NCBI GenBank assembly: GCA_018648805.1
Contig: JABGQM010000024.1
Span: forward strand, 1,065 to 65,064
Source of the DNA: Verrucomicrobiota bacterium
GTDB lineage: Bacteria; Verrucomicrobiota; Kiritimatiellia; UBA8416; JABMPJ01
DNA: 64,000 nt
Reading direction: 5' to 3'
The position numbers were made by a program, and so were the translations under genes. Shown here piece after piece: positions 4,493 to 35,204 of the stretch (position 1 is its first letter; every line of letters begins with the position of its first letter). Under the pieces are notes generated by a model, which saw only the letters and a program-made list of their open reading frames with translations, was not told the origin of the DNA and ran no database searches.

Positions 4493-4495
4493 CCT

Positions 4496-12409: not shown

Positions 12410-12412
12410 CCT

Positions 12413-14455
12413 TCAGCCCTCATCCTTCATCCTTCTCGTCTCCCGCAAATTCTCTCGCGCCACACTGTACTCCGGTTTCAGTCGCAGCGCCTCTTCAAAA
12501 TGCCTGATCGCATCCGGGAGCCGGCCGCTTTCCTGATAGATGGCACCCAGGTTGTTGTGGGCCGAGGCGTCGGCGGGATTGATGCGCACCGCCTGCAGGC
12601 CGTGGACGATGGCCTCATCGTTGCGGCCCAGGTAGAGCAGCGCGACGCCCCAGTTTTTGTGGGCACCGGCGTAGTCCGGCTCACGCAGCAAGACCTGCCG
12701 GTACTGCTCGATCGCTTCCTGTGGTTGCCCCAGCGCCAGCAGGCGATTGCCCAGGTTGTAACGGGCGTCTACCAGGTCCGGGTCGATCCGCACGGCCTTC
12801 CGATAGTGAGACAGTGCGTCCCCCGGCTGCCCTCCCGCCTCAAGTGCGACCCCGTAGTTGTAAAGGGCCTCCGCGTGGCGGGGGTTTAGTCGCACAGCTT
12901 CGCGGTAGTGTTGCATGGCTTCGCGGAGGTCGCCCAGCGCCTGTAGGGCATTGCCCAGGTTGTTGTGGGCATCCGCGTCCATCGGGTCGATACGTAGCGC
13001 TTCCCGGCAGTGTTCGGCCGCTTCGCGGGAACGCCCCAGCGCCTGCAACGCATGGCCCAGGTTATTGTGGGCAACATGGCTCTCGGGTCGATGGGTGACA
13101 TTGTCCTGCCAGATCCGCAGTTGACTGTGATAGTCCCGGTTGCGATCGTGAGTGCGGTATCCCAACACGATCACGCTTGCCAGCGCCAGGCAGCCGCCCA
13201 CTGCGGCACGTCGTTTCGGGTCCGTGGCGAACTTTCGAACAGCGTACTCAGCGCCAAGAACGGCAAGCATGACAGCTGCCGCCAGCGACAGGTACATGCG
13301 ATGCTCGAAGATGGCCTGGCGCATGGGTGCGATGCTGGAGGTCGGGGCCAAGATCAGGAAGAACCACGCGAGAACGAATCCGTACCATTTGCGGCGGACT
13401 ATGCCGCGGAACATCACGGCGAGCATACCCAGGATGGCCAGAGCAGGAAACACGATGCGGGGCCATTGATCCTCCAGCGTCCAGCCGTAGGACAATACCA
13501 GCGGCGAAGGCCAGACCGCCAGGCGCAGGTACTGCAGCAGAACGAGGGGCTGGGTCAGGAGATAGCGCAGCGGGCTGATGCTGACGAAATCGCTCGTCGA
13601 TTCCTGCCAGGTGGCGACGATGATCGCAAAGACGATCAGCCAGGTCGAGCAAAGGGCCGCGTAGAACCGGCCTCGCGCTCGGCCCATCCTTCGCGCTTCG
13701 CTGGCTACGGAGGGCAGGCGAGCGCGGGCTACAGAGAGCGGGTCCTGTAGCCCGCGCCCCGCGGAGCGGGGTAAACTCGCCGCTTGCCCCGCCTTGGCGG
13801 GGAGCGCGAGGCCATCGGTGAATATGTAATCGTAGAGAATCACGAGTAGCGGCGCGCTGAACATGGTCTGCTTGACCCCCATCCCACAGGCACAGGCGAG
13901 GACGGTGGCCGCGTACCAGCGGCCACTCTTCTCGCCTCTGAGTCCCCGAATCGCGCAGTACATCGTCAGCAGGAAGAGCAGCCCCATCAGCGATTCGGCG
14001 CGCTGTACGATGTAGGTTACGCTCTCGGTCTGCAGGGGGTGGACCAGCCAGATCGCTGCCGTGGCCATGGCAATCCAACAGCCACTGCCCTCATACCGCT
14101 CGCGAAACTGTGGAAGATCAAGCGTGCGCCGGACCACTCCGAAGAGCAGCAGCCCGGCCGCGATATGAATCAGAAGGTTGACCAGATGGTAGCCCCGGGG
14201 CTCCGGACCGAGCAGGGCGTGGTTCAGGGCAAAGGAGAGGCTGAGCAGCGGCCGGCCATCCACGGTCATCCCCGTGCTCCACAGCGGCAGCGACATGGAT
14301 TCGCTCAGCGGCCACAGTCTACAGATGTGTGGGTTATCCCGGATGGAGTGGACGTCGTCGTACAGGAACACACCATCGAAGCTGTTCCAATACGCCGCCA
14401 CCCCCACCAGGATAAGGAGGAGGAAGGGAAGCCAGCTCTTGAGCGGATGTTTCAT
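12413..14455 (-). CDS. TMTC/PMT-like GT-C + TPR protein (paralog 6), in-frame REP/BIME insertion
   Basis: Same motifs; insertion identical in type to paralog 5 (REP cluster 13669..13813). Confidence 0.7.
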   Translation of the reverse strand: MKHPLKSWLPFLLLILVGVAAYWNSFDGVFLYDDVHSIRDNPHICRLWPLSESMSLPLWSTGMTVDGRPLLSLSFALNHALLGPEPRGYHLVNLLIHIAAGLLLFGVVRRTLDLPQFRERYEGSGCWIAMATAAIWLVHPLQTESVTYIVQRAESLMGLLFLLTMYCAIRGLRGEKSGRWYAATVLACACGMGVKQTMFSAPLLVILYDYIFTDGLALPAKAGQAASLPRSAGRGLQDPLSVARARLPSVASEARRMGRARGRFYAALCSTWLIVFAIIVATWQESTSDFVSISPLRYLLTQPLVLLQYLRLAVWPSPLVLSYGWTLEDQWPRIVFPALAILGMLAVMFRGIVRRKWYGFVLAWFFLILAPTSSIAPMRQAIFEHRMYLSLAAAVMLAVLGAEYAVRKFATDPKRRAAVGGCLALASVIVLGYRTHDRNRDYHSQLRIWQDNVTHRPESHVAHNNLGHALQALGRSREAAEHCREALRIDPMDADAHNNLGNALQALGDLREAMQHYREAVRLNPRHAEALYNYGVALEAGGQPGDALSHYRKAVRIDPDLVDARYNLGNRLLALGQPQEAIEQYRQVLLREPDYAGAHKNWGVALLYLGRNDEAIVHGLQAVRINPADASAHNNLGAIYQESGRLPDAIRHFEEALRLKPEYSVARENLRETRRMKDEG
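13669..13813. repeat. REP/BIME cluster inside CDS 12413..14455, in frame
   Basis: near-duplicate of 11608..11752 cluster. Confidence 0.8.
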
Positions 14456-14500
14456 CCTTCAGCTTTCATCCTTCATCCCTCATCCCTCATCCCTCATCCC
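14452..14500. repeat. Heptanucleotide tandem repeat (GAGGGAT)4-GAAGGAT spanning stop codon of paralog 7 and RBS/start of paralog 6
   Basis: minus-strand reading: agagggatgagggatgagggatgagggatgaaggatgaaagctgaaggATG; 2-3-unit versions at 4488..4520 and 12405..12440. Confidence 0.75.
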
Positions 14501-16699
14501 TCTCTTCATCATTTTCCTCGCCTTGCGCAGATTATCTCGCGCCGCAGTATAGTCCGGTTTCAATCGCAGCGCCTCTTCAAAATGCCGGATCGCCTCGGCG
14601 AGTCGGCCGCTTTTCTGGTAGGTCATGCCCAGCTTGTAGTGGGCTGGTGCGAACTCCGGTTCGAAACGCAGGGCGTCTCGATAGCAGTCCATCGCCTCCC
14701 CGGGCTTCCCGGCCGCTTCCAGTGCAATCCCCAGGTTGTACTTGACCTCGGGGGAGTGCGGCTTGAGACGGGCTGCTTCACGGTGGTGCCTGACCCCTTC
14801 CCGGGGCTGTCCCTGCGCCAATAGCGCGTTGCCCAGGTTGATGTGAGCTTCCGCGTGATTCGGGTCGAGCTGTATGGCCTCTCGGTAGCGGGCAATCGCT
14901 TGCCGCGGCTCACCGGCTGCCTCCAGGGCAACCCCCATATTGTAGTTGATTCCGACGGAGTCCGGCTTGAGCCTGAGCGCATCCCGGTAATGCACAATCG
15001 CCTCCCGTGGATGCCCGCCTCTCAGCAGGGCATCACCCAGATTGCCCTGGGCGTCTTCCAGGTCCGGCTTGATCCGTACGGCCTCTCGATAGTGATCTAT
15101 CGCCTCCCCCCGCTGTCCCGACACCTCCAGGGCGATACCCAGGTTGTAGTTGACATCGGCGTCGTCCGGTTTGAGCCGAAGCGCCGCCCGGTAGTGCCGT
15201 ATGGCTTCACGGGTCTGCTTCAGAGCTAGCAGGGCATTGCCCAGGTTGTTGTGAGCATCTGCATACTCCGGGTCGATCCGCAGCGCTTCCCGGCAATGCG
15301 GAAGCGCTTCCCGGGCGCGACCCGACGCCAGCAGGGCCTCGCCGAGATTGACGTGGGCCAGCTGGCTCTCCGGCCGATGCGCAACATTGTCCTGCCACAA
15401 CCCGATGGTGCTGTGATAGTCACGGTTGCGAGCATAGGTGAGGGCCCCGAGGACAACCACGACTACCGCTGCCAGGGCGCCACGCGCCATTGCACGCGTT
15501 GAAACCGTGCGAACGCATCGGACCACGCGCGAGACGCCGATCACCGCGAGGACCACGACCGCCGCGAGCGACAGGTACATGCGGTGCTCGACCATCGCCT
15601 GCCGTGTGGGTGCGATGCTGGAGGTCGGTGCGAGGATCAGGAGGAACCACGCCAGGACGAACCCATACCAGCGGCGGCGCCACAGGCCCCGAATCATCAC
15701 GGCCAGCATGCCCAGAATAACCAGGGCCGGAAACACGATGGGTGGCCACTGAGTTGTAAATGGCCACTCGTAAGACAGAACCAGTGGCGACGGCCAGACC
15801 GCCAGGCGCAGATACTGCAGTAGAACGAGGGGCTGGGTAAGGGCGTAGCGCAGCGGACTGATCTCGACAAAATCGATCGTCGATTCCTTCCAGGTTAACC
15901 CGATGATGCCGAGAACGATCAGCCAGGTGGCAAAGAGGCCCGCGTAGAACCGGCCTCGCGCTCGGCGAGCGCGGGCTACATGGCCCGATCTCTGTAGCCC
16001 GCGCTCGCCGAGCGCGAGGCCATCGGTGAATACGTAGTCATAGAGAATCACCAGCAGCGGTGCACTGAACATCGTCTGCTTGACTCCCATGCCGATGGCG
16101 CAGGCGACGACGGCGGCCACGTACCAGCGTCCACCCTTGTCGCTCGTGAACCCCCTAATCGCACAATACATCGTCAACAGAAACAACATCCCCATCAGTG
16201 ACTCGGCGCGTTGCACGATGTAGGTGACGCTCTCGGTCTGCAGCGGATGCACCAGCCAGATCAAGGCGACGGCAAGCGACAACCAGGTCGGGTTGCCCGG
16301 GCATCGCTCGCGAAAGCGCGGCAGGTCCAGTGTACGCCTGACCACCCCGAAGAGGAGCAACCCGGCCACGAGGTGAATCAGCAGGTTGACCAGGTGGTAG
16401 CCCCACGGTTCCGGGCCGAACAAGAAATGATTCAGAGCAAATGACAGACTGAGCAACGGCCGCCCGTCCACGGTCGTAGCCGTGCTCCACAGCGGCAGCG
16501 ACATAGCCTCACTGAGCGGCCACAGCGTGCGGATATGTGGGTTATCCCGAATGGAGGTTAGATCGTCGTACAGGAACACGCCGTCGAAGCTGTTCCAGTA
16601 CGCCAGCACACCCGCCAAGATCAGGAGCAAGGGGGGGAGGAAACGACTCAGCAGTATGTGAGTGTGTGGGTGTCTGGGTATGTTGGTGTTGCGTTGCAT
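14480..16699 (-). CDS. TMTC/PMT-like GT-C + TPR protein (paralog 7), in-frame REP insertion
   Basis: N-term MQRNTNIPRHPHTHILLSRFLPPLLLIL then conserved core; insertion DGLALGERGLQRSGHVARARRARGRF from REP pair 15952..16021. Confidence 0.7.
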   Translation of the reverse strand: MQRNTNIPRHPHTHILLSRFLPPLLLILAGVLAYWNSFDGVFLYDDLTSIRDNPHIRTLWPLSEAMSLPLWSTATTVDGRPLLSLSFALNHFLFGPEPWGYHLVNLLIHLVAGLLLFGVVRRTLDLPRFRERCPGNPTWLSLAVALIWLVHPLQTESVTYIVQRAESLMGMLFLLTMYCAIRGFTSDKGGRWYVAAVVACAIGMGVKQTMFSAPLLVILYDYVFTDGLALGERGLQRSGHVARARRARGRFYAGLFATWLIVLGIIGLTWKESTIDFVEISPLRYALTQPLVLLQYLRLAVWPSPLVLSYEWPFTTQWPPIVFPALVILGMLAVMIRGLWRRRWYGFVLAWFLLILAPTSSIAPTRQAMVEHRMYLSLAAVVVLAVIGVSRVVRCVRTVSTRAMARGALAAVVVVVLGALTYARNRDYHSTIGLWQDNVAHRPESQLAHVNLGEALLASGRAREALPHCREALRIDPEYADAHNNLGNALLALKQTREAIRHYRAALRLKPDDADVNYNLGIALEVSGQRGEAIDHYREAVRIKPDLEDAQGNLGDALLRGGHPREAIVHYRDALRLKPDSVGINYNMGVALEAAGEPRQAIARYREAIQLDPNHAEAHINLGNALLAQGQPREGVRHHREAARLKPHSPEVKYNLGIALEAAGKPGEAMDCYRDALRFEPEFAPAHYKLGMTYQKSGRLAEAIRHFEEALRLKPDYTAARDNLRKARKMMKRGMRDEG
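15952..16021. repeat. REP pair inside CDS 14480..16699, in frame
   Basis: ggcctcgcgctcggcgagcgcgggctaca...ctgtagcccgcgctcgccgagcgcgaggcc. Confidence 0.85.
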
Positions 16700-17025: not shown

Positions 17026-18357
17026 TCAGCTCGCGGCAGCGCTGGAGGCCGACAGCAGCCACTTCCAGGCGGGGATCACTTCAACGGTGACACCGTCGAT
17101 GTTCGTCGTTTCTTCGCTGTTGAACGTGATGATGCAGTTCCGGGTCGTTTTCAGGTGGGCGGCCGCCGGTGGAATGGCTCGGAGTTCACGCTCGCGCACC
17201 GAGGCGGTATCCATTGCATAGCACACCTGGTAGAGCTCCCTGTCTGAGGACCTTCCGCGCTTTCGAACCGCCACGAAATCCACTTCATGTCCCTGGCGTG
17301 TGCGGTAGTATGAAATCTTGTATCCCCGTCTCCGAAGCTCCAGGTAGATGAGATTCTCAAACTGCCGGGTTGGATCAACTCCCTCCGCTGGTACTATCGC
17401 GTCGGCTAAGGCCCAGTCCACTGCGTAGACCTTTCGGTAGTTCTGGCTTCGTACCTTCTCTGAACTGGAGAAGAACTCGACGGAAAACAGCATGTAGGCT
17501 TCCTGGAGATAGTGCATATATCTGTACAGGGTCTCCGCCGAGAACCTGACGCCATCCCGCCGCAGGTTGACGATGATCTTGTTTATCGTGACAGGACACG
17601 ACGTCCTGGACAGCAGGGCGTGCGAGAATCGCGAGAAGGCCACGATGTTGATGTTGTCGTCAGGATGGGCTTCAATGATGTCCCGCAGCACCATCGTATC
17701 CCAGTAGCTCTCCAGAAGGTCGCGATGCAGCTCAGGGGGTAGGTCCAGTAGCCCAGGGAAGCCGCCCTGTCGAATATAGCGTTGCAGCAGCTTTATGAGG
17801 CGCGTCGCACCGCCTGTTGAGACTGTATCCGGTTCGACCTCGTAGTGTCTTGCGAACTCACCAAACGAAAAGGGGAGGAGTTCGCGTGAAAAATTCTTGC
17901 CGCGCAACCCCGACGCAATATCTCCCTTGAGCAGCTTCGATGTAGACCCTGTGATCAGCACCTTGTTCCTGTGCCCGTCGAGAAGGTGAAGGACGTAATC
18001 TTCCCATCCCTCGATTCGATGGATTTCATCGAATATAAAGAAGATGTCTTCCTTACCTTGTTTCTCCGGATACAGCGCGAAGTAAGCGGTGTCGATCTGG
18101 GTCAGGTCGTCCACGGAGAGTGTTCTCAACCTTGGATCGTGAAACTGAATGCGGCAGATATTCTCCCGTGCCACCCCACGCTCAATCAGTTCGCTTGCAT
18201 ATTGGTAGGTCCTGAACGTCTTGCCGGCACGCCTGGAGCCAACGACGGCGAAAGACATGTTTGCGATGGGCGTTATCTCCAGATCCCGGCGGGTGAGGGG
18301 GGGGAACTCTGACTTCTGGAAATCGAGAATAATTCGCTGTAAAACCTCGATATTCAT
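17026..18357 (-). CDS. AAA+ superfamily ATPase (COG1373 / DUF4143-type)
   Basis: Walker A VVGSRRAGKT, Walker B IFFIFDEIH; start set at MNIEVLQ where GGGAG RBS precedes ATG (18357); the longer ORF-track start 18435 lacks an RBS. Confidence 0.7.
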   Translation of the reverse strand: MNIEVLQRIILDFQKSEFPPLTRRDLEITPIANMSFAVVGSRRAGKTFRTYQYASELIERGVARENICRIQFHDPRLRTLSVDDLTQIDTAYFALYPEKQGKEDIFFIFDEIHRIEGWEDYVLHLLDGHRNKVLITGSTSKLLKGDIASGLRGKNFSRELLPFSFGEFARHYEVEPDTVSTGGATRLIKLLQRYIRQGGFPGLLDLPPELHRDLLESYWDTMVLRDIIEAHPDDNINIVAFSRFSHALLSRTSCPVTINKIIVNLRRDGVRFSAETLYRYMHYLQEAYMLFSVEFFSSSEKVRSQNYRKVYAVDWALADAIVPAEGVDPTRQFENLIYLELRRRGYKISYYRTRQGHEVDFVAVRKRGRSSDRELYQVCYAMDTASVRERELRAIPPAAAHLKTTRNCIITFNSEETTNIDGVTVEVIPAWKWLLSASSAAAS

Positions 18358-18574
18358 GATCTGTAACTCCCTTTTTTTTTTGCGCGGCGATCTGGTATTG
18401 CGCGGTTGAGTTGTTGTCTTGTGAACAGAAGACATAGCATAAATAGTCTTCTTCTCGCAAGAAGATTGTCAAAAGGAAGAGGAGGATGAGAAGACCAAAG
18501 CGCTTAGGGCCAGGCCGGTGAAGCATTCGCCAAGGCCCTGGCCCCATCGCTCCAATCCAGCGTCAGTTAGCGCC

Positions 18575-18720
18575 CTGTAGCCCGTCCCGATTGCGAAACG
18601 CATCGGGACCAAGCGCGAGGCCCTCCCTGTAGCCCGCTCTCGCCGAGAGCGAGGCCGCTCTGTAGGTGGGCAGAGCTCTTGAGCATCCTGCCTCGCGCTC
18701 GGCGAGCGCGGGCTACAGGA
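18575..18720. repeat. Intergenic REP cluster
   Basis: four GTAGCCCG/CGGGCTAC units in alternating orientation. Confidence 0.8.
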
Positions 18721-18782
18721 CTCAGAGTGAAGGTGGCCCTCCCTGTGGTGTAGCGCGAGATCCGAGCTGGCACGGGGCCGGG

Positions 18783-18947
18783 TTAGAACAGCGTGTAGAT
18801 GAAGGGCGCGGCCGACTGACCCACGACCAGCAGCGCCGCCAGCAACAGCAGGACCAGCACGATGGGGATAATCCACCACGCCTTGTTATGCCAGGCGAAC
18901 TCGCCGAATTCCTTGAGCAGCCGCCCTATATGTTTAAGAAATAGCAT
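18783..18947 (-). CDS. SxtK-like small membrane protein (54 aa) of the kind associated with O-carbamoyltransferases
   Basis: MLFLKHIGRLLKEFGEFAWHNKAWWIIPIVLVLLLLAALLVVGQSAAPFIYTLF: single TM helix, C-terminal APFIYTLF signature recalled from sxtK-type proteins. Confidence 0.5.
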   Translation of the reverse strand: MLFLKHIGRLLKEFGEFAWHNKAWWIIPIVLVLLLLAALLVVGQSAAPFIYTLF

Positions 18948-19084
18948 GGAAGCGCATCTCCTCTTGTCCCATCCACCGCACCGATGTTCCAAACCCCAAT
19001 ATTAGCCTGATCTATTCATAAAATCCACTACGAATGCATATCTCCCGCCATCTCAAGGACTTTGCGACGAATGCCGATCTCAAC

Positions 19085-19545
19085 GTGTGCTAGCCGATCT
19101 GTTCATCACCTCTATGGCAACTCGACCAGACAGGAGAAGTTGCCCGCAGATCCCGCAGATGGACGCAGAAGAGAGTAGAGAGAGGGAGAATGTTGCGGGA
19201 ATCCGTCGGCGATGGAATACCATCGCCATAGGATTCCCGCAACGTGGCTCCCCGGCTGCTAATCGCAGCCGGTTGGGGCACTGGGAGCGCCGGAACGCTG
19301 GGCGTGAAGTACAGACGGGCGACACGTGCAGGCTCCCTATCGATGGGTCCTGACACGGGTCTTCCCGGGCGCGATTAGCGCCCGGCGGATAACGTTGCGG
19401 AAATTGAGTGGGGCCGGCATACCGCGCCGTAGCCTTGGCGAAGGCGGGTATTCCGGCCACGCCAATTCCCGCAACATTTCCCATCTCCCGATCTGCGTCC
19501 ATCTGCGTAATCTGCGGGCAGTCTCTCCCGTGAGTTGGTGAACAA
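19085..19545. repeat. Complex nested inverted-repeat region (MITE or structured RNA) between carbamoyltransferase and sxtK-like gene
   Basis: outer arms cccgcagatcccgcagatggacgcag (19137-19162) vs ctgcgtccatctgcgtaatctgcggg (19494-19519); inner hairpins gttgcgggaatcc...ggattcccgcaac and ccggcataccgcgcc...ggcgggtattccggcc. Confidence 0.6.
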
Positions 19546-19551
19546 TTCTGT

Positions 19552-21381
19552 CTAGTCCAGAACCCGCTCTTCGCGCCAGTCCTTTTCCTCGCTCCAGGGC
19601 GGTTGGTCCGGTTTGGCCACGAGGTAGGATCCCAGGACCAGGTAGTCCATCTCGGTGCGCATGAAGCAGGTGTAGGCATCCTCGGGCGTGCAGACAATCG
19701 GTTCCCCGCGCACGTTGAACGAGGTATTGATCAGAATGCCGTACTCCGTACGGTCTTCGAAGGACTTGATCAGGTCGTAATAACGGCCATTGGTTTCGTG
19801 ATTGACGGTCTGTACGCGGGCGGAGTAGTCCACGTGGGTGATCGCGGGCACATCCGAGCGCACCATGTTGACGCGCTCTGTCATCGGCACGTCTCCCGCA
19901 TCATCGCGGCGCACACAGCGCTCTTCGCGTAGCGGAGCGACCAGGAGCATATACGGCGATGGCTTATCCAGCTCGAAGAAGTCGCTCACGCGCTCTTCCA
20001 GACAGCTCGGCGCGAAGGGTCTGAAAGACTCCCGGTACTTGATTTTCAGGTTCATGACCGACTGCATCTTCGGTGAACGGGCATCGCCCACGATCGACCG
20101 GTTGCCCAGCGCCCGCGGTCCGAATTCCATGCGTCCGAGACAGAGCCCCACGACGTTCTCCTCGTCGATCAGCGCGGCGATGGTCGCGGCCCATTCCTCG
20201 TCCGCCAGCTTGCGCGCCGGATAGCCCCGCGCTTCCAGGAACGCCCCGATCTCGTCGTCGGAAAACTCCGGCCCCAGGTAAGAGCCCTTCATCGTGTCGT
20301 GCACACCGTCGGCTTTCCGGGGGTTGCCCTGAATGCCGTGCCAGGTGAACAGTGCCGCGCCCAGCGCCCCGCCGGCATCACCCGCCGCCGGCTGGATCCA
20401 CACGTTCTCGAAAGGCCCTTCGCGCAGTAGGCGGCCGTTCGCCACGCAATTGAGTGCCACCCCACCGGCCAGGCAGAGGTTCTTCTCGCCTGTGATCTCG
20501 TGCGCATGCCGCGCCATGCGCAAGACGATCTCCTCGGTGACGACCTGGATCGATTTGGCCATGTCCATCTCCCGCCGGGTGATGTCGCTTTCTTTCTTGC
20601 GCGCGGGCCCTTCAAACAGTTCCTCGAACTTCTTGTTGGTCATGCGCAGTTCGTCCAGATAACCGAAGTAGTCCATGTTCAAGCGGAACGAACCGTCTTC
20701 GCGCAGATCGACGAGGTTGTCGAGGATGAGGTCCACGTAGCGCGGCTCGCCGTAAGGGGCCAACCCCATCAGCTTGTATTCGCCCGAATTGACCCTGAAC
20801 CCCGCAAAGTAGGTAAAGGCGGAGTAGAGCAGCCCCAGTGAATGCGGAAAACGGATCTCCTTGATAATTTCGATCGTGTTGTCCTTGCCCCGGCCCACGG
20901 TGGTGGTGTCCCATTCGCCGACCCCGTCCAGGGTCAGGATCGCCGCGCTCTGGAACGGCGACGGCAGGAATGCGCTGGCGGCATGCGATTCATGGTGCTC
21001 GGGGAAGAAGAGGTCCTTCGGCATACGGAAACCGCTCTTCTCCACGGCCGATTCGATATGGTAAGGGATCCAGAGTTTCTCCTTCATGCAGACCGGCATG
21101 GCCATGAGGAACGAACGCAACCCCTTGGGTGCTACGGAGAAATACGTTTCCAGGATGCGGACGAACTTCGATATTGGCTTGTCATAGAAGGCCACGGCGT
21201 CCAACCCGTCGGCGGCCACCTCGCCCTTCGCCAGACAGTAATTGACGGCATTCACCGGGAAGCCGGCGTCCTGTTTCTTGCGGGTGAACCGCTCTTCCTG
21301 CGCCGCGGCGATGATGTCGCCGTCGCGGACCAGGACCGCTGCCGAATCATGGTAGAAAGCGCTAATGCCGAGAATGTTCAT
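19552..21381 (-). CDS. NodU/CmcH-family carbamoyltransferase
   Basis: MNILGISAFYHDSAAVLVRDGDIIAAAQEERFTRKK... and C-terminal YgjD-like and carbamoyltransferase blocks (GGVALNC, ITHVDYSARVQTV, LINTSFNVRGEPIV); start ATG 21381 overlaps stop of upstream gene (TGATG). Confidence 0.9.
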   Translation of the reverse strand: MNILGISAFYHDSAAVLVRDGDIIAAAQEERFTRKKQDAGFPVNAVNYCLAKGEVAADGLDAVAFYDKPISKFVRILETYFSVAPKGLRSFLMAMPVCMKEKLWIPYHIESAVEKSGFRMPKDLFFPEHHESHAASAFLPSPFQSAAILTLDGVGEWDTTTVGRGKDNTIEIIKEIRFPHSLGLLYSAFTYFAGFRVNSGEYKLMGLAPYGEPRYVDLILDNLVDLREDGSFRLNMDYFGYLDELRMTNKKFEELFEGPARKKESDITRREMDMAKSIQVVTEEIVLRMARHAHEITGEKNLCLAGGVALNCVANGRLLREGPFENVWIQPAAGDAGGALGAALFTWHGIQGNPRKADGVHDTMKGSYLGPEFSDDEIGAFLEARGYPARKLADEEWAATIAALIDEENVVGLCLGRMEFGPRALGNRSIVGDARSPKMQSVMNLKIKYRESFRPFAPSCLEERVSDFFELDKPSPYMLLVAPLREERCVRRDDAGDVPMTERVNMVRSDVPAITHVDYSARVQTVNHETNGRYYDLIKSFEDRTEYGILINTSFNVRGEPIVCTPEDAYTCFMRTEMDYLVLGSYLVAKPDQPPWSEEKDWREERVLD

Positions 21382-21899
21382 CAATACTGTTTCCGGTAAT
21401 AGTCGGGGGTTGAACGGCGCGGCGTCGATGTCCAGTATGTCTTCGTGTCCTTGTTCAGCTTGCGCTGCATGGGGTCCACCCCCCGCACAGCGAGAATGAG
21501 CCGACCCGGGATGAAGCAGAGCACGAAGAAGGGCACCAGCAAGATCCAGGTCAGTGCCAGACCTACTGCCTTCCCCAACCACGCCCCGAACCGTTCGATG
21601 GCCGCAAAGACCGGCGGCACGAACAGGCCGCTGAGCAATACCACGGTCGCCAGAACGCAAACCACGACCGCCATAGCCGGGTGTTTGACGACAAAAGCCA
21701 TCACGGCGGCAATGGCCGTCATCACGCAAGCCTGGATAAGCGCCTGGCGTCGTCGCGCACCGCCAGCGGCTGCCCCGGTCTGCCCCGCCGCGGTAACCCA
21801 GGGCCATATCGTCGCCGAGACACTGCTCTGCCGGTAGGGCGTTGCCGTATCTTCCGCCGCGTTAACCTGTTCGTTCATCATGGTCTCCCTCTCCCGCAC
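21381..21899 (-). CDS. SxtJ-like polytopic membrane protein translationally coupled to carbamoyltransferase (start may be the internal MMNEQ)
   Basis: Three to four predicted TM helices (AIAAVMAFVV, VVVCVLATVVLLSGLFV, ALTWILLVPFFVLCF); stop overlaps carbamoyltransferase start; size and context match sxtJ-type partners. Confidence 0.5.
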   Translation of the reverse strand: MRERETMMNEQVNAAEDTATPYRQSSVSATIWPWVTAAGQTGAAAGGARRRQALIQACVMTAIAAVMAFVVKHPAMAVVVCVLATVVLLSGLFVPPVFAAIERFGAWLGKAVGLALTWILLVPFFVLCFIPGRLILAVRGVDPMQRKLNKDTKTYWTSTPRRSTPDYYRKQY

Positions 21900-21929
21900 T
21901 GGTTTCTATCAAACCCACGCACGCCTGGC

Positions 21930-22223
21930 CAGCGCGGGCTACGTAGCCCAGAGTGAAGTTGGCCGGTCCGCATCCCGCATGGCCCTCCCAGTAGCCCGCT
22001 CTCGCCTGCCCTCCGTCTTGTCCTCCAAAGCTCGCAGAGCGACGGAGGAAGCCAGCGAAGCGCGAAGGATGGGCCGAGAGCGAGGCCGCTCTATGATGGT
22101 GCAGAGCTCTTAAGCATCCTGCCTCGCGCTTGGCAAGCGCGGGCTACATAGCCCAGAGTGAAGTCACCCGGTCCGCATCCTGCATGGCCCTCCCTGTAGC
22201 CCGCGCTCGCCGAGCGCGAGGCC
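21930..22223. repeat. Intergenic REP/BIME array (about six units with a ~90-bp composite unit duplicated at 21932 and 22138)
   Basis: gcgcgggctac(g/a)tagcccagagtgaagt...ctgtagcccgcgctcgccgagcgcgaggcc. Confidence 0.8.
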
Positions 22224-22345
22224 TCCCGGAAGATTACCTCGGAAGAATACGCAAACGCTCTGGGATGCTCTGGGACTGAAACACCCATTGCGTAGCGACA
22301 GGAACAGTGTTAGAGTTACAACCAATGGGTACGAGGTCGGGTGAC

Positions 22346-22639
22346 ATGATGCAATACGATTTCGAGTGGGACCCCGAGAAGGCTAGTCAGAACAGGGGGA
22401 AGCACGGCGTCACCTTCGACCAGGCCGCTGGAGTTTTTCATGACCCCAGGGCAGCATCGCTCTATGACACGGAACACAGCGAGACGGAAGACCGCTGGAT
22501 AACCATGGGTCTCTCGGCAGCAGGAGGCCTGCTGGTGGTGCACCACACATACTAGGAAATCGATGACAGCCGTGTGCGGATCAGAGTATTCTCCAGTCGC
22601 AAGGCGACACCTGAAGAGATCAGGCAATATACGGAATAG
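22346..22639 (+). pseudogene. brnT: BrnT-family (DUF497) toxin interrupted by an in-frame amber stop at 22553-22555
   Basis: MMQYDFEWDPEKASQNRGKHGVTFDQAAGVFHDPRA...LVVHHTY*EIDDSRVRIRVFSSRKATPEEIRQYTE: same frame on both sides of TAG; the downstream part is the canonical BrnT C-terminus. Confidence 0.7.
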
Positions 22640-22642
22640 GCC

Positions 22643-22843
22643 ATGAAGAAACAGTATGACTTTTCTACAGCGACGCGTGGTAAATTCTATCATCCGGATG
22701 CCCGGTTGAACCTTCCGGTATACCTGGAGGAAGAGGTGCGGCAGTTTGTTGCAGTGATTGCCGAGCGTAAGCACTCCGACGTGAATGAGGTCGTGAACGC
22801 CCTGCTTCGGTCCGATATTGGCTTGGCCAAGGCCATGCAGTAA
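22643..22843 (+). CDS. brnA: BrnA-family antitoxin
   Basis: MKKQYDFSTATRGKFYHP... 66 aa, directly after brnT remnant, typical BrnA N-terminus. Confidence 0.65.
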   Translation: MKKQYDFSTATRGKFYHPDARLNLPVYLEEEVRQFVAVIAERKHSDVNEVVNALLRSDIGLAKAMQ

Positions 22844-22860
22844 CGGATTCCGCCCGCTCC

Positions 22861-23030
22861 CTGTAGCCCGCCCCGCAGATGCAGGGCTTAACGTCGCCCA
22901 TTGGCCTCGCGCTTGGCAAGCGCGGGCAACATGCATCAGCTCCCCTGTAGCCCGCTCTCGCCGAGAGCGAGGCCGACTCCAGGTGGAAGCCTTGCCCTCC
23001 ATCATCCTGCCTCACGCTCGCCGAGCGCGG
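22861..23030. repeat. Intergenic REP cluster
   Basis: ctgtagcccgccccgcag...ctgtagcccgctctcgccgagagcgaggcc...cctcacgctcgccgagcgcgg. Confidence 0.75.
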
Positions 23031-23444
23031 GGTGTGCCCTGGCATCTTATCGATACGCTTAGCAGAGAAGTCCAGCCTGGGCGAGGTAGGCTACAGAAGA
23101 CCCCGAGACTGTCCGTTGACAGATGGTCTCTTCCTTTGACCTTTTCCAGGCGCACGGACGGCGTGGAAGCCGTCCCTCCAGCCCGATCGGCCAGCTCTGG
23201 TGTCCTGGAGGGTCGGGTTCCATCCCGACCGGGCCACTATCGGGCCAATCTGTCGTGGCGCATGGATGCGTTGCGCACTTTTGCGCCATAGACTCTGTCG
23301 CCCGTCATAAATCCGTTCGTTTTCGGAAAGATCGTAAAGTATGACTTCTCTACAGCGATCCTTTTGCCGCTTGGCGAAAGACCTCTGCCGCCTAACTCTG
23401 GTGACCCGAGGTCGCTCGTGAGAGGAGTCCCTGTCCCGATCTGC

Positions 23445-23681
23445 CTATTTTGCATCATGTGGATCAGCGGGAACGTCAGGAACTCTGGACATGATGTCAC
23501 GGAACTCCTTGCGCGAACCCGTGGCGGCACGTTTGGCAAGGTAGGTTTCTGTCATGAGTGCTGAAATCTTCTCGGCGACAGCCGTGGAGATTAGCTGATT
23601 GACAGAAATATGCTCTTCTCGGGCAAGGGCACGCGCCGTTTCATGAAGAGAGTCAGGCAGTCTTAGGCTGAGTGTGCTCAT
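23445..23681 (-). CDS. Ribbon-helix-helix type antitoxin
   Basis: 78 aa, ...HISVNQLISTAVAEKIS... (RHH/HicB-like C-terminal motif); overlaps PIN gene by 4 nt. Confidence 0.6.
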   Translation of the reverse strand: MSTLSLRLPDSLHETARALAREEHISVNQLISTAVAEKISALMTETYLAKRAATGSRKEFRDIMSRVPDVPADPHDAK

Positions 23682-24106
23682 TTCTCTTTCCCTTTCTCTT
23701 TCAGGAAGTCACCCGGGGTGATGGCAACAATCCCGAACTTTCCAATATCTCTGAAATCTCGAAGATTGAAGGTGACAATATACTCACATCGTCCGCTGAC
23801 AGCGGCCTCTAGGACCATGTCATCTTTCGGGTCCCGAAGAAACGGTCGCCACAGAAAGTGCACCTTGCGGCAGTCACTGACAGAGCAGACAAAACTCAAG
23901 TATCTTTCGATATCGATAGCACTGAAGGGCACTTCGGTTCGTGGGTCACACAGTGACTTTTCGTACTCCACCACCAGGGGCACCGTCACCACCGGGCGGT
24001 ACAACCGGCCCCCCAGAAATGACAGCATGCGGTAAGACATACCCCGTCTGGAGCGCAGGCCCGACACAAGGACGTTAGTGTCAATTACGACTCTGACCAA
24101 GCTCAT
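23678..24106 (-). CDS. PIN-domain toxin
   Basis: VVIDTNVLVSGL at N-terminus, acidic residues spaced as in PIN; 142 aa. Confidence 0.65.
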   Translation of the reverse strand: MSLVRVVIDTNVLVSGLRSRRGMSYRMLSFLGGRLYRPVVTVPLVVEYEKSLCDPRTEVPFSAIDIERYLSFVCSVSDCRKVHFLWRPFLRDPKDDMVLEAAVSGRCEYIVTFNLRDFRDIGKFGIVAITPGDFLKEKGKEK

Positions 24107-24509
24107 GGTGATACCGTATACGGTATTCCTCTGACTGTCAACTCATCCAGCAGAATGTGTCCGTATGGTCTTTCCCTATGGCCCGACAGTGCCCCGGTCG
24201 GGGTGGAACCCGACCCTCCACAGCACCACAATGGGCCGATGTCCAGTTGGAGGGCCGGCTTTTGTCCGCGCGCCTGGAAAAACCAAGGGAAAAGCCCATG
24301 TTTTGTCTCCTTCTTCGCAATCCCCGCTCGAATTCACTCGACAGGGGGGGGGGGATGGTATTTTTGACGGAGAGTTGAGCCAATATTATGTCTAAAAGCG
24401 TCAGTCTACATCCGAAAATAGAATTCAACGCGATGTCCCGTGGGGGGGATCGCGCGAGGCAGGGGAACCAACAAGTCAACAAACAAGTCAACAATATGGA
24501 GGACAGGCA

Positions 24510-25280
24510 GTGATGAAGAAACAATGGATAACAACAGTGGTCATGATCGCGATGGTGTTGGGTTTAGTGTCAGGAACGGTGTTGGGGGCTGACCTGTTCA
24601 GTGAACTCGGTATACTGGATCTGGATGCCAACGGCGGGATCAATCCAGCAACCGGCAACCCCTGGCAGGCTGGCGATACGTATCGGTTCGTCTTTTCATC
24701 CAGCGAGGTTTACCCCAGCGATATAACCAGTTCGGACACGATTGCCACGTACAACAACTGGATCCAGGGGCTCGCCGATGCCAGCAGCCTGCGTATTGGC
24801 ACCGCCGAAGGTGTCACATGGAACGCGCTCGTCTCTACAGCATCCGTCAACGCACGCGACAACACCTCAACCAATCCCAATACAGACGGGGATGGCGAAG
24901 GGATTTTCCTGTTGAATGGCACTACACGGGTTGTGGATGATTACGTTGAAGTCTGGAATGTTGGTGGTGTGAATGCCAGTCAGAATAGCGGTATCGTTAT
25001 AGACGAGAATGGGGATCCGTGGAATAACACTGACGCGACAATATGGGCAAACGCGAGCTACGGAGGCACATGGACAGGTACCAAGAACGACGGAACGGTT
25101 GGCTCTCCTCTGGCGACCGATGCCGATGTCACCTGGGGCGGGACGCCCTGGACCGACTACAACCACTGGATCTATCGGTCCAATGCGGACCCCTCCGCCA
25201 ATGCGGGGTTGATGTACGGCCTCTCCGAGACCCTGACGGTGTGGACCCCGCCCGCCGGAACGCTTGTGACAATCAGGTAG
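24510..25280 (+). CDS. Secreted hypothetical protein (signal peptide; Gly/Asn/Thr/Trp-rich)
   Basis: N-terminal signal MMKKQWITTVVMIAMVLGLVSGTVLGA; no recognised catalytic motif; 3' end lies inside a ~160-bp direct repeat. Confidence 0.5.
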   Translation: MMKKQWITTVVMIAMVLGLVSGTVLGADLFSELGILDLDANGGINPATGNPWQAGDTYRFVFSSSEVYPSDITSSDTIATYNNWIQGLADASSLRIGTAEGVTWNALVSTASVNARDNTSTNPNTDGDGEGIFLLNGTTRVVDDYVEVWNVGGVNASQNSGIVIDENGDPWNNTDATIWANASYGGTWTGTKNDGTVGSPLATDADVTWGGTPWTDYNHWIYRSNADPSANAGLMYGLSETLTVWTPPAGTLVTIR

Positions 25281-25420
25281 GACGCAAGACTCCCTGAGAC
25301 AGGGGTGAAGTGAATCACGAATGGGGTGGGGCATCTGTTGCCCCACCCCTCGTGTTATAGGTCCCCAATCGGACGCTAGCTCGACCGCCGCCCTGTCTCT
25401 CCCGCTCCCTGTAGCCCACT
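25262..25420. repeat. Direct repeat copy 1 (~160 bp; partner 28013..28178; fragment near 46270..46300)
   Basis: ...cgcttgtgacaatcaggtag...gggtgaagtgaatcacgaatggggtggggcatctgttgccccacccctcgtgttataggtccccaatcggacgctagctcgaccgccgccctgtctctcccgctccctgtagccc. Confidence 0.75.
25285..25370 (+). terminator. Probable intrinsic terminator hairpin after secreted-protein gene (inside direct repeat)
   Basis: ggggtggggcatctgttgccccacccc stem-loop followed by tcgtgttat. Confidence 0.45.
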
Positions 25421-25632
25421 CATTTGAGCGCAGTTCGCATCGCATTCTGAGGTGTGGCCAGATATGGCCGGATTTGCCAGCATAGCGACGATAGGTCGTC
25501 CCGTAATTCGCAACTGATTGTACTCCAGATGGATAGCAAACAACGACGCCCCAGGTCAGTCGCCACAGTGAAGCGTTTGCTCCCCCAAGAAGAATGATGT
25601 CCGGATTTGGCCGGATTTGGCCGGATTTTCGA

Positions 25633-27015
25633 TCACCGAGGCCCCCCTTGCACCCGGCGGTAGAGCGTGGCTCGTCCCTTTCCATGGCGCTCAATGATGC
25701 CGCGATCTTCCATGTCGGCCAGGTCACGCCGCGCTTGCCGTTCGCTGACGCCGGTGGCAGTCAGATAGTCCGCTGTCTTGAACTCCGCGCCGGGCTTGAG
25801 CGATTCGACGAACTCAGCCTGGCGGCCAGTCAGGGCCTCCTCCGCGGCCGGCTCGGGTGCCCGAAAGAGCGTTACGGACACGATCCCTCCTTCGGCACGC
25901 CACCTCGGCGTTTTTGCGCCAAGCTCCTTACATTCCCAGATCATCCTCTGCGTACCTATGCCGAGCTGGTCCATGAGTCTTCGCAGGTAGAAGACACGGG
26001 CAATGTCCGGGTTTACGGGAATTGAGCGGTGTTCCGTTCTGAGGCTGCCTGGCGTCAGATCACCCGGTAGGCTGCCCGGGTTGGTAACCACCAGTCGATC
26101 CGGGTAGATCTCTACCCGGATGCATCCCCCCACGGTCTCGTAGGATCGATGCGTAATGGCATTCACCAGGGATTCCCTGAGCGCGTAAACGGCGTAGGCA
26201 GGCCGGTCAACTCGCTCCAACTGATCCTTCTTGAAGCGTCCGGAGAACCCGGTGCGTTGCTGTATGATGGAGACGGCCTCACGCAGTGTGCTAACCGCGG
26301 GTCCATCCAGGATAACATCGTTGGCAATGGGGCCGGACTTGTTCCCTGCATATGAAATGACCCGCATGTATATGCTGGGGGACCATCTCCGCGTCTCAGC
26401 AGCGAAAAGGACCAAGGCCGCATTGGTAAGGACGCCGCCACGTCGCAGGTAGAGCTGCTCAAAAAGCGCGCCATCTTCAGCCGGAATGTTCCCACCGAAG
26501 CGCCCGGCCTCAGCTATGTCCGTGCGGGTCTTGGCCAGTTCATCCGTTCTGCAGTCCTCGATGCCGAAGCCGGGCATAGGGTCCCGCTCCCAGCGCTCAA
26601 GATCCGCTGCCGCCCGTTCGACGAGATCAGCACTGCGTTCTTCGCCTGCGCGCATCGTTGCGCTGCCAATGCGCACCCAAATCTGGCGATTGACGGAGTA
26701 GGGTTTGTCGGAGCCCGGGGGGACCCGAATGACGATGACGTCGATCCCATGGGCCTCCTGAACGGAAACAGAAAGGAAAGGACGCGGATTGATTCTGGAC
26801 ATGAAGAGTCGGTTCAGTTCCTCTGCCACGTCTGTTGCGTGTTGGATGCCCGTGGGCTCGCCCTGATCGTTCACACCCCATAGCAGAAAACCGCCTTGCT
26901 GGTTCAGCAAACCACAGACCGCACGTGAAAGCGTGTCTGGGGAACTCCGAGGCCCCTTGAACTCAACCGTTTCGGACTCACCCAGCTTGATCAACTGAAG
27001 GACACGTGAATTCAT
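25633..27015 (-). CDS. Schlafen/AlbA_2-like DNA-binding domain + HATPase-like + C-terminal wHTH protein (often annotated RecG-like regulator)
   Basis: N-term ESETVEFKGPRSSPDTLSRAVCGLLNQQGGFLLWGV (AlbA_2 signature); C-terminal HTH ...ADYLTATGVSERQARRDLADMEDRGII. Confidence 0.55.
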   Translation of the reverse strand: MNSRVLQLIKLGESETVEFKGPRSSPDTLSRAVCGLLNQQGGFLLWGVNDQGEPTGIQHATDVAEELNRLFMSRINPRPFLSVSVQEAHGIDVIVIRVPPGSDKPYSVNRQIWVRIGSATMRAGEERSADLVERAAADLERWERDPMPGFGIEDCRTDELAKTRTDIAEAGRFGGNIPAEDGALFEQLYLRRGGVLTNAALVLFAAETRRWSPSIYMRVISYAGNKSGPIANDVILDGPAVSTLREAVSIIQQRTGFSGRFKKDQLERVDRPAYAVYALRESLVNAITHRSYETVGGCIRVEIYPDRLVVTNPGSLPGDLTPGSLRTEHRSIPVNPDIARVFYLRRLMDQLGIGTQRMIWECKELGAKTPRWRAEGGIVSVTLFRAPEPAAEEALTGRQAEFVESLKPGAEFKTADYLTATGVSERQARRDLADMEDRGIIERHGKGRATLYRRVQGGPR

Positions 27016-27656: not shown

Positions 27657-28012
27657 GAGAATGCTCTCTCCAGTAATCCGTCCTGCACAGCTATGGGTGT
27701 CGCGTATCGGTCGAGTTTGAGACGCGCTGGAAAGACGACCGTTGGTCGTCCCCCACTGATGAACAGGATGGGCATATGCCCTTGGAAACCAGCCTGAAAC
27801 AGCGTCGTCATGTGAAGAGAGCATGCCGCATAGGTGCTGGACGGTCAAGGCCGGGGATAAACGGCGTATGGGAGGCAGCGTGGCGGAGATGTCACCGCCA
27901 GGGTCAGACTGGAATAGCCCTGTCCTGCATAATGATGAACCCCACCTCGCCTGGCAATCCGATAGCCGTTGACTGAAGGCGGCCCCTACCTGTGCGCAAG
28001 CACGCGGTCCGC

Positions 28013-28178
28013 GCCCCCTCCGGCACGCTCGTGACGATCAGGTAAGGCGCAAGAATCCCTGAGAAAAGGGTGAAGTGAATCACGAATGGGGTGGGGCATC
28101 TGATGCACCACCCCTCGTGTTATAGGTCCCCAAAATCGGACGCTAGCTCGACCGCCGCCCTGTCTCTCCCGCTCCCTG
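28013..28178. repeat. Direct repeat copy 2 (~90% identical to 25262..25420)
   Basis: ...cgctcgtgacgatcaggtaag...gggtgaagtgaatcacgaatggggtggggcatctgatgcaccacccctcgtgttataggtccccaaaatcggacgctagctcgacc...ctccctgtagccc. Confidence 0.75.
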
Positions 28179-35171: not shown

Positions 35172-35204
35172 CCAACCTGTGCTGTGGTATGCGGTTTGTG
35201 CAAC

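Follow-up and report, generated by a model that had tools for sequence, protein, structure and literature searches.

A carbamoyltransferase trio with SxtJ-like and DUF5989 partners, putatively membrane docked, in a verrucomicrobial genome

A 64-kb stretch of verrucomicrobial DNA (hereafter, the window) encodes an O-carbamoyltransferase (CT) together with two small membrane proteins, one SxtJ-like and one of the DUF5989 (SxtK-type) family. We assign a probability of roughly 0.55 to the reading that these proteins form a membrane-docked O-carbamoylation module that acts on an envelope glycan and is separate from a StrB1-like amidinotransferase encoded elsewhere in the window. The trio is a variant of a known module that is uncharacterized as yet. 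The features discussed below are the following:

18783..18947, minus strand: DUF5989 (SxtK-type) protein, 54 aa (Pfam PF19451)
19006..19552, no strand: non-coding insertion that separates the CT stop codon from the DUF5989 gene (comparison with relatives)
19552..21381, minus strand: CT of the NodU/CmcH/TobZ family, 609 aa (Pfam)
21381..21881, minus strand: polytopic membrane protein resembling SxtJ, 166 aa when started at the ATG at 21881
42123-43154, plus strand: StrB1-like amidinotransferase with the motif GGGPHCTT (PDB matches 1bwd and 6u1r)

According to the list of open reading frames, the genes run in the order J-like, CT, K-like. The TGA stop of the J-like gene and the ATG of the CT gene share one base (TGATG), and the two genes are translationally coupled. 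This overlap and the Pfam assignment bear out a preliminary description of the sequence, which had placed a NodU/CmcH-type CT at 19552-21381 and coupled it to a polytopic membrane protein. That description had also matched the locus to the sxtI-sxtJ-sxtK arrangement, with a 54-aa single-transmembrane protein following the CT. The small protein is real and ends in APFIYTLF, but it lies 604 nt downstream of the CT gene rather than directly after it; likewise, the SxtJ and SxtK families are represented, whereas the order is J-CT-K and not I-J-K.

The CT spans both of its Pfam models over their full length, Carbam_trans_N at 337.2 bits (E 1.8e-100) and Carbam_trans_C at 237.2 bits (E 9.5e-71), and joins a Kae1-like (Kae1/ASKHA-like) N-terminal domain to a YrdC-like C-terminal domain. 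Matches in the PDB include 7xb6 (E 2.4e-90), GdmN, NovN, and TobZ, soluble antibiotic CTs that have this two-domain architecture and its motifs in common with the window enzyme. The alignment to 7xb6 retains HHxxH, DG, GD(A/P)G, GPRALGNRSI, REPFRPFAP, and NTSFNV; we take HHxxH, DG, and GD-x-G in the N-domain and GPRALGNRS, RE-x-FRPFAP, and NTSFN in the C-domain to be catalytic and metal-binding motifs. TobZ reportedly proceeds through a carbamoyl-adenylate, and, by analogy, the window CT is expected to share this chemistry with TobZ-type enzymes. The antibiotic CTs act on soluble antibiotics, however, and score only about 250-307 bits against the window CT; to our knowledge, they also work without SxtJ- or SxtK-type partners. 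The Nod-factor CTs NodU and NolO belong to the same Pfam family, but assignment as NodU was rejected, with the NCBIfam equivalog NF041651 reaching 149.8 bits against a cutoff of 1000. CTs encoded with J and K partners in Planctomycetes, Gemmatirosa, and Sinorhizobium share 57-61% identity with the window CT, which supports the placement of the latter, as judged by sequence, in a clade traveling with such partners. The concern that the enzyme might instead group with unrelated nodulation or antibiotic CTs, raised in the preliminary description, is thereby answered. Hydropathy analysis found no hydrophobic or transmembrane segment in the CT.

Translation of the J-like gene probably begins at the ATG at 21881, which follows a Shine-Dalgarno-like GGGAGAGGGAGA and is also the start called in relatives (166 aa); the GTG at 21899, which opens the longest ORF, is a less likely start. 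The N-terminal region of the protein varies and includes a VWPW motif, and residues ~46-136 form a hydrophobic core. The basic C-terminal tail contains the motif G-x-D-P-[ML]...T-Y-W...Y-R-K-Q-Y; in hydropathy and charge analysis, its 9 K/R residues give a net charge of +6. An AlphaFold2 model (mean pLDDT 80.5) places helices at 42-65, 68-87, and 89-133. The protein has no Pfam or NCBIfam match, and PF19588 (SxtJ; gathering score 24.4 bits) is absent even at E values up to 10. Its family alignment (A2) nevertheless matches the PF19588 member WP_068422840 with an hhalign probability of 97.7% (E 2.5e-12, 118 columns); the score of 74 compares with 16.8 for the reversed control and 22.4 for the best of 60 shuffles. 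A tblastn comparison with an SxtJ-family protein gave 26.5% identity over 113 aa. These similarities support the interpretation of the J-like protein as a divergent SxtJ homologue. In an exhaustive profile search, 6761 cluster representatives scored an E value of 0.001 or better, and the Pfam SxtJ model overlooks large parts of the SxtJ family.

Assignment of the 54-aa protein to DUF5989 is direct (PF19451, 65.3 bits against a cutoff of 27). The comparison of both small ORFs with the SxtJ and SxtK families, suggested in the preliminary description, thus came out positive for DUF5989 by Pfam and for the J-like protein by hhalign but not by Pfam SxtJ. The DUF5989 protein begins with a basic, amphipathic segment, continues with a single transmembrane helix, and ends in an invariant A-P-F-I-Y-T-L-F, of which the P-F-I-Y-T-L-F end is predicted to face outward; its family alignment (A1) contains 17 invariant columns and a conserved N-K-x-W-W motif. 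It is 70-100% identical to the 120 homologues listed, from Verrucomicrobia, Kiritimatiellia, Lentisphaerae, and Marinimicrobia. A GAGGAG lies 10 nt 5' of its ATG. The 604-nt gap between the CT and DUF5989 genes includes 547 nt of insertion (19006-19552), which is missing from two relatives with about 91% DNA identity (L004 and L006), where the equivalent of window position 19553 joins 19005 directly and leaves a 46-nt spacer; two others (L003 and L007) contain an identical insert. With inverted-repeat arms at 19130-19202 and 19465-19531 and a palindrome at 19192-19243, the insertion looks like a miniature inverted-repeat (MITE-like) element, and it has no Rfam family match. Despite this upstream insertion, the DUF5989 gene differs from those of L004 and L006 by 10 and 7 nucleotides, respectively, with 0 amino acid changes, and this restriction to synonymous changes points to strong purifying selection. 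Given the 604-nt distance from the CT gene and no sigma-70-like promoter predicted in 18500-22400, co-expression of DUF5989 in this strain is uncertain.

Conservation among relatives indicates that the small ORFs are genuine CT partners, as the preliminary description had held. Sufficient upstream sequence was available at 75 DUF5989 loci; a CT gene lies directly upstream in 56, and every one of these (56/56) also has a J-like gene directly upstream of the CT; co-occurrence of the J and K families with the CT is thereby confirmed in 56 loci. The 1-nt overlap of J stop and CT start recurs in 24 of these 56 loci (J stop to CT stop offset of 1829 nt). The remaining 19 of the 75 lack a same-strand CT immediately upstream, so the position of DUF5989 is not strictly bound to the CT; at L064, which is among these 19, the CT and J genes adjoin on the opposite strand. 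When neighboring ORFs were clustered, CT and J-like proteins were the only ones present in more than 17 loci out of about 65. Compared with the proteins of the window, the median identity across 60 loci was 72% for CT, 74% for DUF5989, and 40% for the J-like protein. SGNH/GDSL genes occur at 22 of 59 trio loci, about 17 of them directly adjacent and co-directional, and no such gene adjoins the window trio. A convergent GT2 gene lies just downstream of the trio in 12 loci, and one trio (L002) sits beside genes for a GT2 and a Wzm/Wzt-type ABC transporter. In several genomes, housekeeping genes surround the trio and glycan genes are missing from its vicinity, which counts against a glycan target. 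The trio recurs in unrelated contexts in at least seven phyla and moves independently of neighboring genes.

The same three families are found together in saxitoxin and suomilide clusters. Cyanobacterial saxitoxin clusters have the order sxtI-J-K-L, with sxtI of 1839 bp and sxtK of 165 bp (PMC2679770), and the suomilide cluster carries sxtI/J/K-like genes followed by an SGNH gene (PMC10157211). Like the window, these clusters encode a ~610-aa CT, a small polytopic membrane protein, and a 54-aa protein; a GDSL/SGNH gene often comes next, whereas the window trio has none adjacent. SxtI-SxtJ-SxtK differs from the window order J-CT-K, in which J is coupled to the CT, and SxtJ (~134 aa) is shorter than the 166-aa J-like protein, whose N-terminal VWPW extension is additional and which Pfam SxtJ does not detect. 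The saxitoxin host is cyanobacterial rather than verrucomicrobial, and the window has no other sxt genes. We liken the window DUF5989 protein to cyanobacterial SxtK (ABI75101) by its 165-bp gene length and by the corresponding place of DUF5989 after an SxtJ-family gene in annotated loci. A complex of CT, J, and K has been put forward in the literature as a hypothesis only (PMC2679770, PMC2885083, PMC12300590).

Other bacteria carry related modules. On plasmids of three Planctomycetes (Planctomyces SH-PL62, Paludisphaera borealis, and Aquisphaera giovannonii), CT-SxtJ-DUF5989 is followed by a sugar O-acetyltransferase, inside exosortase/EpsI/tyrosine-autokinase polysaccharide loci. This CT is 60% identical to the window CT over ~598 aa and the DUF5989 protein 50-54%; the SxtJ protein, to which the profile of the window J-like family aligns at 97.7% probability, shares a C-terminal G-x-D-x-L...[ST]-Y-W...K-Q-F motif with that family but, unlike the window protein, passes the PF19588 cutoff (41.8 and 34.1 bits). 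The planctomycete order is CT-J-K, in contrast to J-CT-K. Sinorhizobium meliloti pSymB and NGR234 pNGR234b encode J (143 aa), K (49 aa), and CT in that order, with a divergent SGNH gene. Their CTs are 57-60% identical to the window CT over the full 609 aa, the 49-aa protein is a DUF5989 member (PF19451, 86.6 bits), and the J-like protein, also missed by Pfam SxtJ, matches alignment A2 at 95% probability (E 3e-8). The adjacent Sinorhizobium SGNH protein has an N-terminal multi-span anchor and is without a counterpart next to the window trio. In Gemmatirosa, the CT gene lies upstream of a K-like ORF. Across phyla, the CT, J, and K families stay together despite permuted order.

In the reading that we favor, the YrdC-like C-terminal domain of the CT would convert carbamoyl phosphate and ATP into carbamoyl-adenylate, in the manner of TobZ and GdmN, and the Kae1-like N-terminal domain would pass the carbamoyl group to an acceptor hydroxyl. 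The J-like protein, through its basic cytoplasmic tails, and DUF5989, through its amphipathic N-terminus, may dock the CT at the inner side of the cytoplasmic membrane; we propose this docking because the CT has no membrane segment, whereas J has a hydrophobic core and K combines one transmembrane helix with a basic N-terminus. The acceptor of the docked CT would then itself be membrane-bound, with a lipid-linked or nascent surface polysaccharide as the likeliest candidate, and the SGNH/GDSL protein adjacent in about a third of loci may act on the same product. A glycan target is plausible, and the preliminary description had also suggested one. It is not the sole possible acceptor, since the presumed acceptor of the saxitoxin and suomilide modules is a small soluble metabolite, and the toxin-antitoxin and defense genes that flank the trio in the window count against it. 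So does the neighboring array of PMT_2+TPR proteins, which is unlinked to the trio even where a strain matches the window at 99.85% identity over their common stretch.

The preliminary description had further proposed that the CT trio and the amidinotransferase jointly add carbamoyl and guanidino groups to one glycan sugar or cyclitol in a streptomycin- or saxitoxin-like manner. The window does encode both enzymes, the amidinotransferase 21 kb off (previously given as about 20 kb) and with the predicted GGGxHCxT motif. Glycan genes are also plentiful there (GT2, GT9, DegT, seven PMT_2+TPR proteins, and radical SAM enzymes), and saxitoxin clusters pair SxtG with SxtI/J/K (PMC2679770). However, the amidinotransferase belongs to a tight operon of its own (DegT aminotransferase, GT2, B12-radical SAM, amidinotransferase, DUF6016), with about 8 kb of toxin-antitoxin and defense genes between it and the trio. 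A count restricted to 8-kb flanks found no amidinotransferase at the 58 other trio loci, whereas the distance in the window is 21 kb. The recurrence of the trio in unrelated contexts likewise argues against joint action. Pfam yields only a sub-threshold ADI match for the amidinotransferase, which is much nearer StrB1 (1bwd; E 5.2e-89, residues 5-343, 302 bits) than SxtG (6u1r; E 2.5e-48, 168 bits). This enzyme is part of a different glycan or aminocyclitol operon, outside the trio module, and we regard joint carbamoyl and amidino transfer as improbable. A saxitoxin-like guanidine-alkaloid pathway could be invoked from the SxtI/J/K-like composition of the trio and the SxtG-related amidinotransferase, yet the gene content largely rules it out. 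A scan of the window's 49 largest ORFs found no PKS or NRPS, as previously stated, and no domains of the core sxt enzymes (the PKS-like SxtA, SxtB, D, S, U, and H/T). The module also stands alone in many genomes, its order is unlike sxt, and the host is a verrucomicrobial MAG lineage, leaving this pathway with a negligible likelihood.

That the small ORFs are chance neighbors unrelated to CT function is similarly hard to credit. The J-like protein has no Pfam or NCBIfam match, and DUF5989 also occurs without an adjacent CT; against this stand the invariable pairing of J-like and CT genes in the 56 loci, their conserved stop/start overlap, three gene orders that all keep CT, J, and K together, and the purifying selection on DUF5989. 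A more elaborate scheme is a trans-envelope relay, in which the CT loads the cytoplasmic side, the SxtJ-like and DUF5989 proteins translocate the carbamoyl group, and a periplasmic membrane-anchored SGNH/AlgX-like protein transfers it to the polymer. Its template is the MBOAT-plus-SGNH O-acetylation systems (AlgI/J/F/X and PatA/B). The roughly 17 adjacent, co-directional SGNH/GDSL genes are consistent with such a relay, as are weak AlgX-domain matches and N-terminal hydrophobic anchors in some SGNH proteins, the equivalent positions of sxtL and the suomilide SGNH gene beside the module, and the invariant, predicted outward-facing end of DUF5989. Most trio loci, including that of the window, lack an adjacent SGNH gene, however, and a carrier role is unlikely for two membrane proteins this small. 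TobZ, GdmN, and NovN transfer carbamoyl straight to the final acceptor, and we know of no biochemical precedent for carbamoyl translocation, making the relay doubtful at best. More speculatively, the CT, SxtJ-like, and DUF5989 proteins, often with a membrane-anchored SGNH/AlgX-like protein, might constitute a widespread and hitherto unrecognized envelope O-carbamoylation machine for surface polysaccharides, in which J and K, beyond anchoring the enzyme, hand carbamoyl or the acceptor across or along the membrane in the way that MBOAT-plus-SGNH systems serve O-acetylation, and which saxitoxin and suomilide pathways later recruited; we consider this unlikely as a whole. Direct action of a membrane-docked CT on an envelope glycan remains our preferred reading.

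For the window, these results remove the suggested carbamoyl-plus-amidino pathway. More broadly, no function has been attributed to SxtJ and SxtK since the saxitoxin cluster was described, and reviews assume a complex with SxtI. Far from being confined to toxin pathways, the CT-J-K set is a mobile unit of three genes, kept together through three gene orders and distributed over Verrucomicrobiota, Kiritimatiellia, Lentisphaerota, Planctomycetota, Gemmatimonadota, Alphaproteobacteria, and Cyanobacteria, often with an SGNH protein and often in polysaccharide loci. Its presence on pSymB of S. meliloti 1021 provides a tractable system for the roles of J and K.

The carbamoyltransferase locus of the window was examined as a putative three-gene module consisting of an SxtJ-like membrane protein (J-like), a NodU/CmcH/TobZ-type O-carbamoyltransferase (CT), and an SxtK-type protein of the DUF5989 family (PF19451; K-like). 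The relevant features are as follows:

21381-21899, minus strand: J-like membrane protein, hydrophobic (longest ORF; likely start ATG at 21881)
19552-21381, minus strand: CT, 609 aa, two carbamoyltransferase Pfam domains
19006-19552: non-coding insertion of 547 nt, absent from the related loci L004 and L006
18783-18947, minus strand: DUF5989 (K-like) protein, 54 aa, C-terminus APFIYTLF, Pfam DUF5989 at 65.3 bits

ORF and Pfam analyses bore out the coordinates and character that the preliminary description had given for the three genes. The J-like protein likely starts at ATG 21881, given the GGGAGAGGGAGA a short way upstream and the length of 165-166 aa called in relatives; its TGA stop shares one base with the CT start codon. 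CT covers both carbamoyltransferase Pfam domains from end to end (E = 1.8e-100 and 9.5e-71), scores 250-307 bits against the solved O-carbamoyltransferases 7xb6, GdmN, NovN, and TobZ with the family motifs conserved, and contains no detectable hydrophobic segment. The 54-aa protein can be assigned unambiguously to DUF5989 from its sequence, with homologues in Verrucomicrobia, Kiritimatiellia, Lentisphaerae, and Marinimicrobia at 70-100% identity. This gene had been thought to follow CT directly; instead, 604 nt separate the two, and DUF5989 is preceded by its own ribosome-binding site (GAGGAG).

CT and DUF5989 usually lie 2-100 nt apart in the 66 related loci compared. The 604-nt spacer recurs identically in L003 and L007, and in L004 and L006 (~91% DNA identity to the window) the base corresponding to 19553 is joined straight to 19005, leaving a spacer of 46 nt. 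The 547-nt insertion carries terminal inverted repeats of ~70 nt (19130-19202 and 19465-19531) plus an internal palindrome and appears MITE-like, with no further copy in the window. An Rfam scan of 17-24 kb returned just sub-threshold chance matches to microRNA families, so the spacer does not correspond to a known RNA, and a promoter/terminator scan of the same region predicted no sigma-70-like promoter. Nucleotide changes in the DUF5989 gene number 10 relative to L004 and 7 relative to L006, none of which alters an amino acid; the gene therefore remains under purifying selection despite the insertion. Just downstream of DUF5989 lies a separate GC-rich palindromic element (18626-18719; 30-nt arms, 93% complementary) that resembles a REP-type repeat by look and likewise gave sub-threshold chance microRNA matches alone in Rfam. 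Similar intergenic copies occur at ~22875-23031 in the window and at 11970-12102 in L003.

Conservation of the trio was assessed with a DUF5989-pattern scan using one genome per species, which yielded 79 loci and recovered the close subfamily only, from the PVC group (Planctomycetes-Verrucomicrobia-Chlamydiae) and a few other lineages. CT lies directly upstream of DUF5989 in 56 of the 75 loci with enough upstream sequence, and a J-like gene directly precedes CT in all 56, with the 1-nt overlap between J stop and CT start recurring in 24. No other family of neighboring ORFs occurs in more than 17 of ~65 loci, and the surroundings vary by locus from housekeeping genes to adhesins and ABC transporters. 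The preliminary description had equated the locus with the sxtI-J-K arrangement of saxitoxin clusters, whereas the window order is J-CT-K. Further permutations exist: CT-J-K in Planctomycetes, J-K-CT on Sinorhizobium meliloti pSymB and NGR234 pNGR234b, and a K-like ORF downstream of CT in Gemmatirosa, with CTs that are 57-61% identical to that of the window. Because the three families stay together even where gene order is permuted, the case that CT, J, and K function together is strong. The CT-DUF5989 fusion that locus L029 seems to encode was dismissed, since this ORF of GC-rich DNA is out of frame.

Some DUF5989 genes lack a neighboring CT (10 loci, including L023, L027, L062, L073, and L074), so this small protein may have a function, or partners, apart from the carbamoyltransferase. 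A repeated neighbor in these cases is a conserved gene whose N-terminus was assigned by eye to the metallo-beta-lactamase-fold type. Locus L041 encodes two tandem DUF5989 copies (7818-8159). On the Kiritimatiellia-type contig L009 (8254-9931), CT is broken up into three ORFs, perhaps through pseudogenization or a sequencing error; J-like and DUF5989 are intact there, with a GDSL gene directly adjacent.

The identity of the J-like protein was less readily established. Neither Pfam nor NCBIfam scans gave a match, and NCBIfam was also silent on genuine SxtJ proteins, indicating that it holds no usable SxtJ model. Homologues numbered 42 when searched with the single sequence and 169 with the family alignment (A2), all unnamed or "hypothetical", so that names gave no connection to SxtJ. 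A much larger superfamily is indicated by an exhaustive profile search, which reached 6761 cluster representatives (E up to 0.001); SxtJ proper was not among the closest 150 representatives listed. A bridge was provided by three planctomycete plasmids on which "carbamoyltransferase", "SxtJ family membrane protein", and "DUF5989 family protein" are annotated in series. SxtJ proteins from two of these plasmids were scanned, and both pass Pfam SxtJ (PF19588). The A2 profile aligned with one planctomycete SxtJ at 97.7% probability (E = 2.5e-12) over 118 columns reaching the C-terminus, with the common motif G-x-D-P-L-x-R...T-Y-W...Y-x-K-Q-F. The real alignment scored 74, compared with 16.8 for the reversed control and 22.4 for the best of 60 shuffles. 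On this profile evidence, the window protein is a divergent SxtJ homologue lying outside the current Pfam model. When the J-like model was compared by fold with PDB structures, nothing scored below E = 3.7, which says little for a small helical membrane protein. The link to the saxitoxin proteins themselves runs through the Pfam family definition, gene position, and the length of sxtK (165 bp, matching the 54-aa gene; PMC2679770) rather than direct comparison with cyanobacterial SxtJ and SxtK. The proposed resemblance of the two small ORFs to SxtJ and SxtK thus holds by family match for DUF5989 and by alignment for the J-like protein, which misses the Pfam model. Literature searches found nothing on DUF5989 and nothing relevant on the Sinorhizobium gene.

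Genomic context at some trio loci points toward surface glycans. Planctomycete copies of the trio reside inside exosortase/EpsI/tyrosine-autokinase polysaccharide loci, adjoining a sugar O-acetyltransferase. An SGNH/GDSL gene is present at 22 of 59 trio loci (directly adjacent and co-directional in ~17), and a convergent GT2 gene lies just downstream at a further 12. The SGNH pairing mirrors the saxitoxin cluster, in which the GDSL lipase gene sxtL follows sxtK (PMC2679770), and the suomilide cluster, in which an SGNH gene follows an sxtK-like gene (PMC10157211). Beside the Sinorhizobium trio, a divergent SGNH gene encodes a protein with a multi-span anchor. In these rhizobia (S. meliloti pSymB, L095/L096, NC_003078.1 ~483.9-486.4 kb; NGR234 pNGR234b, L098), J (143 aa) and K (49 aa) accompany CT and are annotated only as hypothetical or, in the tables used, not at all. 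Most likely, the two small subunits, J and K, would dock the soluble CT on the inner membrane face, where it would act on an acceptor bound to the membrane, probably a glycan of the cell surface; we infer both the docking and the acceptor. The cited papers put forward an SxtI/J/K complex only as a hypothesis (PMC2679770, PMC2885083, PMC12300590).

A broader proposal, that carbamoyl and amidino transfer act jointly, drew on an amidinotransferase gene ~21 kb from the trio. The features concerned are as follows:

42123-43154, plus strand: StrB1-like amidinotransferase (1bwd, E = 5.2e-89; SxtG, E = 2.5e-48; GGGPHCTT)
38539-44251, plus strand: amidinotransferase operon (DegT aminotransferase, GT2, B12-binding radical SAM enzyme, amidinotransferase, DUF6016/cupin)
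32373-38203, minus strand: genes alongside the operon (three radical SAM(-SPASM), GT9, split transketolase)

The enzyme is a genuine StrB1-like amidinotransferase with its catalytic motif intact, and its operon, together with these neighbors, might produce a sugar or cyclitol carrying a guanidino group. It belongs to its own operon, toxin-antitoxin and defense genes separate it from the trio, and the 8-kb flanks of 58 other trio loci contain no amidinotransferase (distances of 20 kb fall outside these flanks); combined chemistry is therefore not supported. The intervening island (~22300-28000) encodes a BrnT toxin, a PIN_3 protein with a HicB/DUF6290-like antitoxin, and a DUF4062 plus Schlafen AlbA_2/HATPase_c_4 protein. 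Farther along, a second transketolase-like, radical SAM-SPASM, and GT2 set (52021-55857) resembles the one found at 33-37 kb and 44-46 kb and hints at a duplication of glycan-modification modules.

Seven large paralogues combine a hydrophobic N-terminal half with C-terminal TPR repeats (six head-to-tail at 2531-16699, the seventh at 48813-51170); the N-terminal half of five shows weak, mostly sub-threshold PMT_2 (GT-C-like) matches. Inside the head-to-tail array is a GDSL-lipase-TPR protein (8607-10145), and beside it an AlgX-like SGNH protein (1294-2400). The array was considered as a functional partner of the trio and rejected, because a verrucomicrobial MAG contig (GCA_018673455.1) that is 99.85% identical over 17044-28947 diverges and carries other genes beyond 17044, and because no other trio locus has PMT_2+TPR-type genes. 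Synteny ends right after an AAA_14/DUF4143 ATPase gene (17026-18435), which is absent from the more distant L004 and L006, and the break marks a recombination or insertion hotspot beside the module.

Taken together, the observation and the SxtJ/SxtK likeness stand, and the combined carbamoyl and amidino chemistry is not supported. The locus is a variant, with a new gene order and a divergent SxtJ, of a known, widespread, and functionally uncharacterized module; existing annotation and the saxitoxin literature already connect J and K with carbamoyltransferases. What the locus adds is that the SxtJ-type family extends far past the Pfam SxtJ model, that an SGNH partner recurs with the trio, and that a tractable copy is present in S. 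meliloti.
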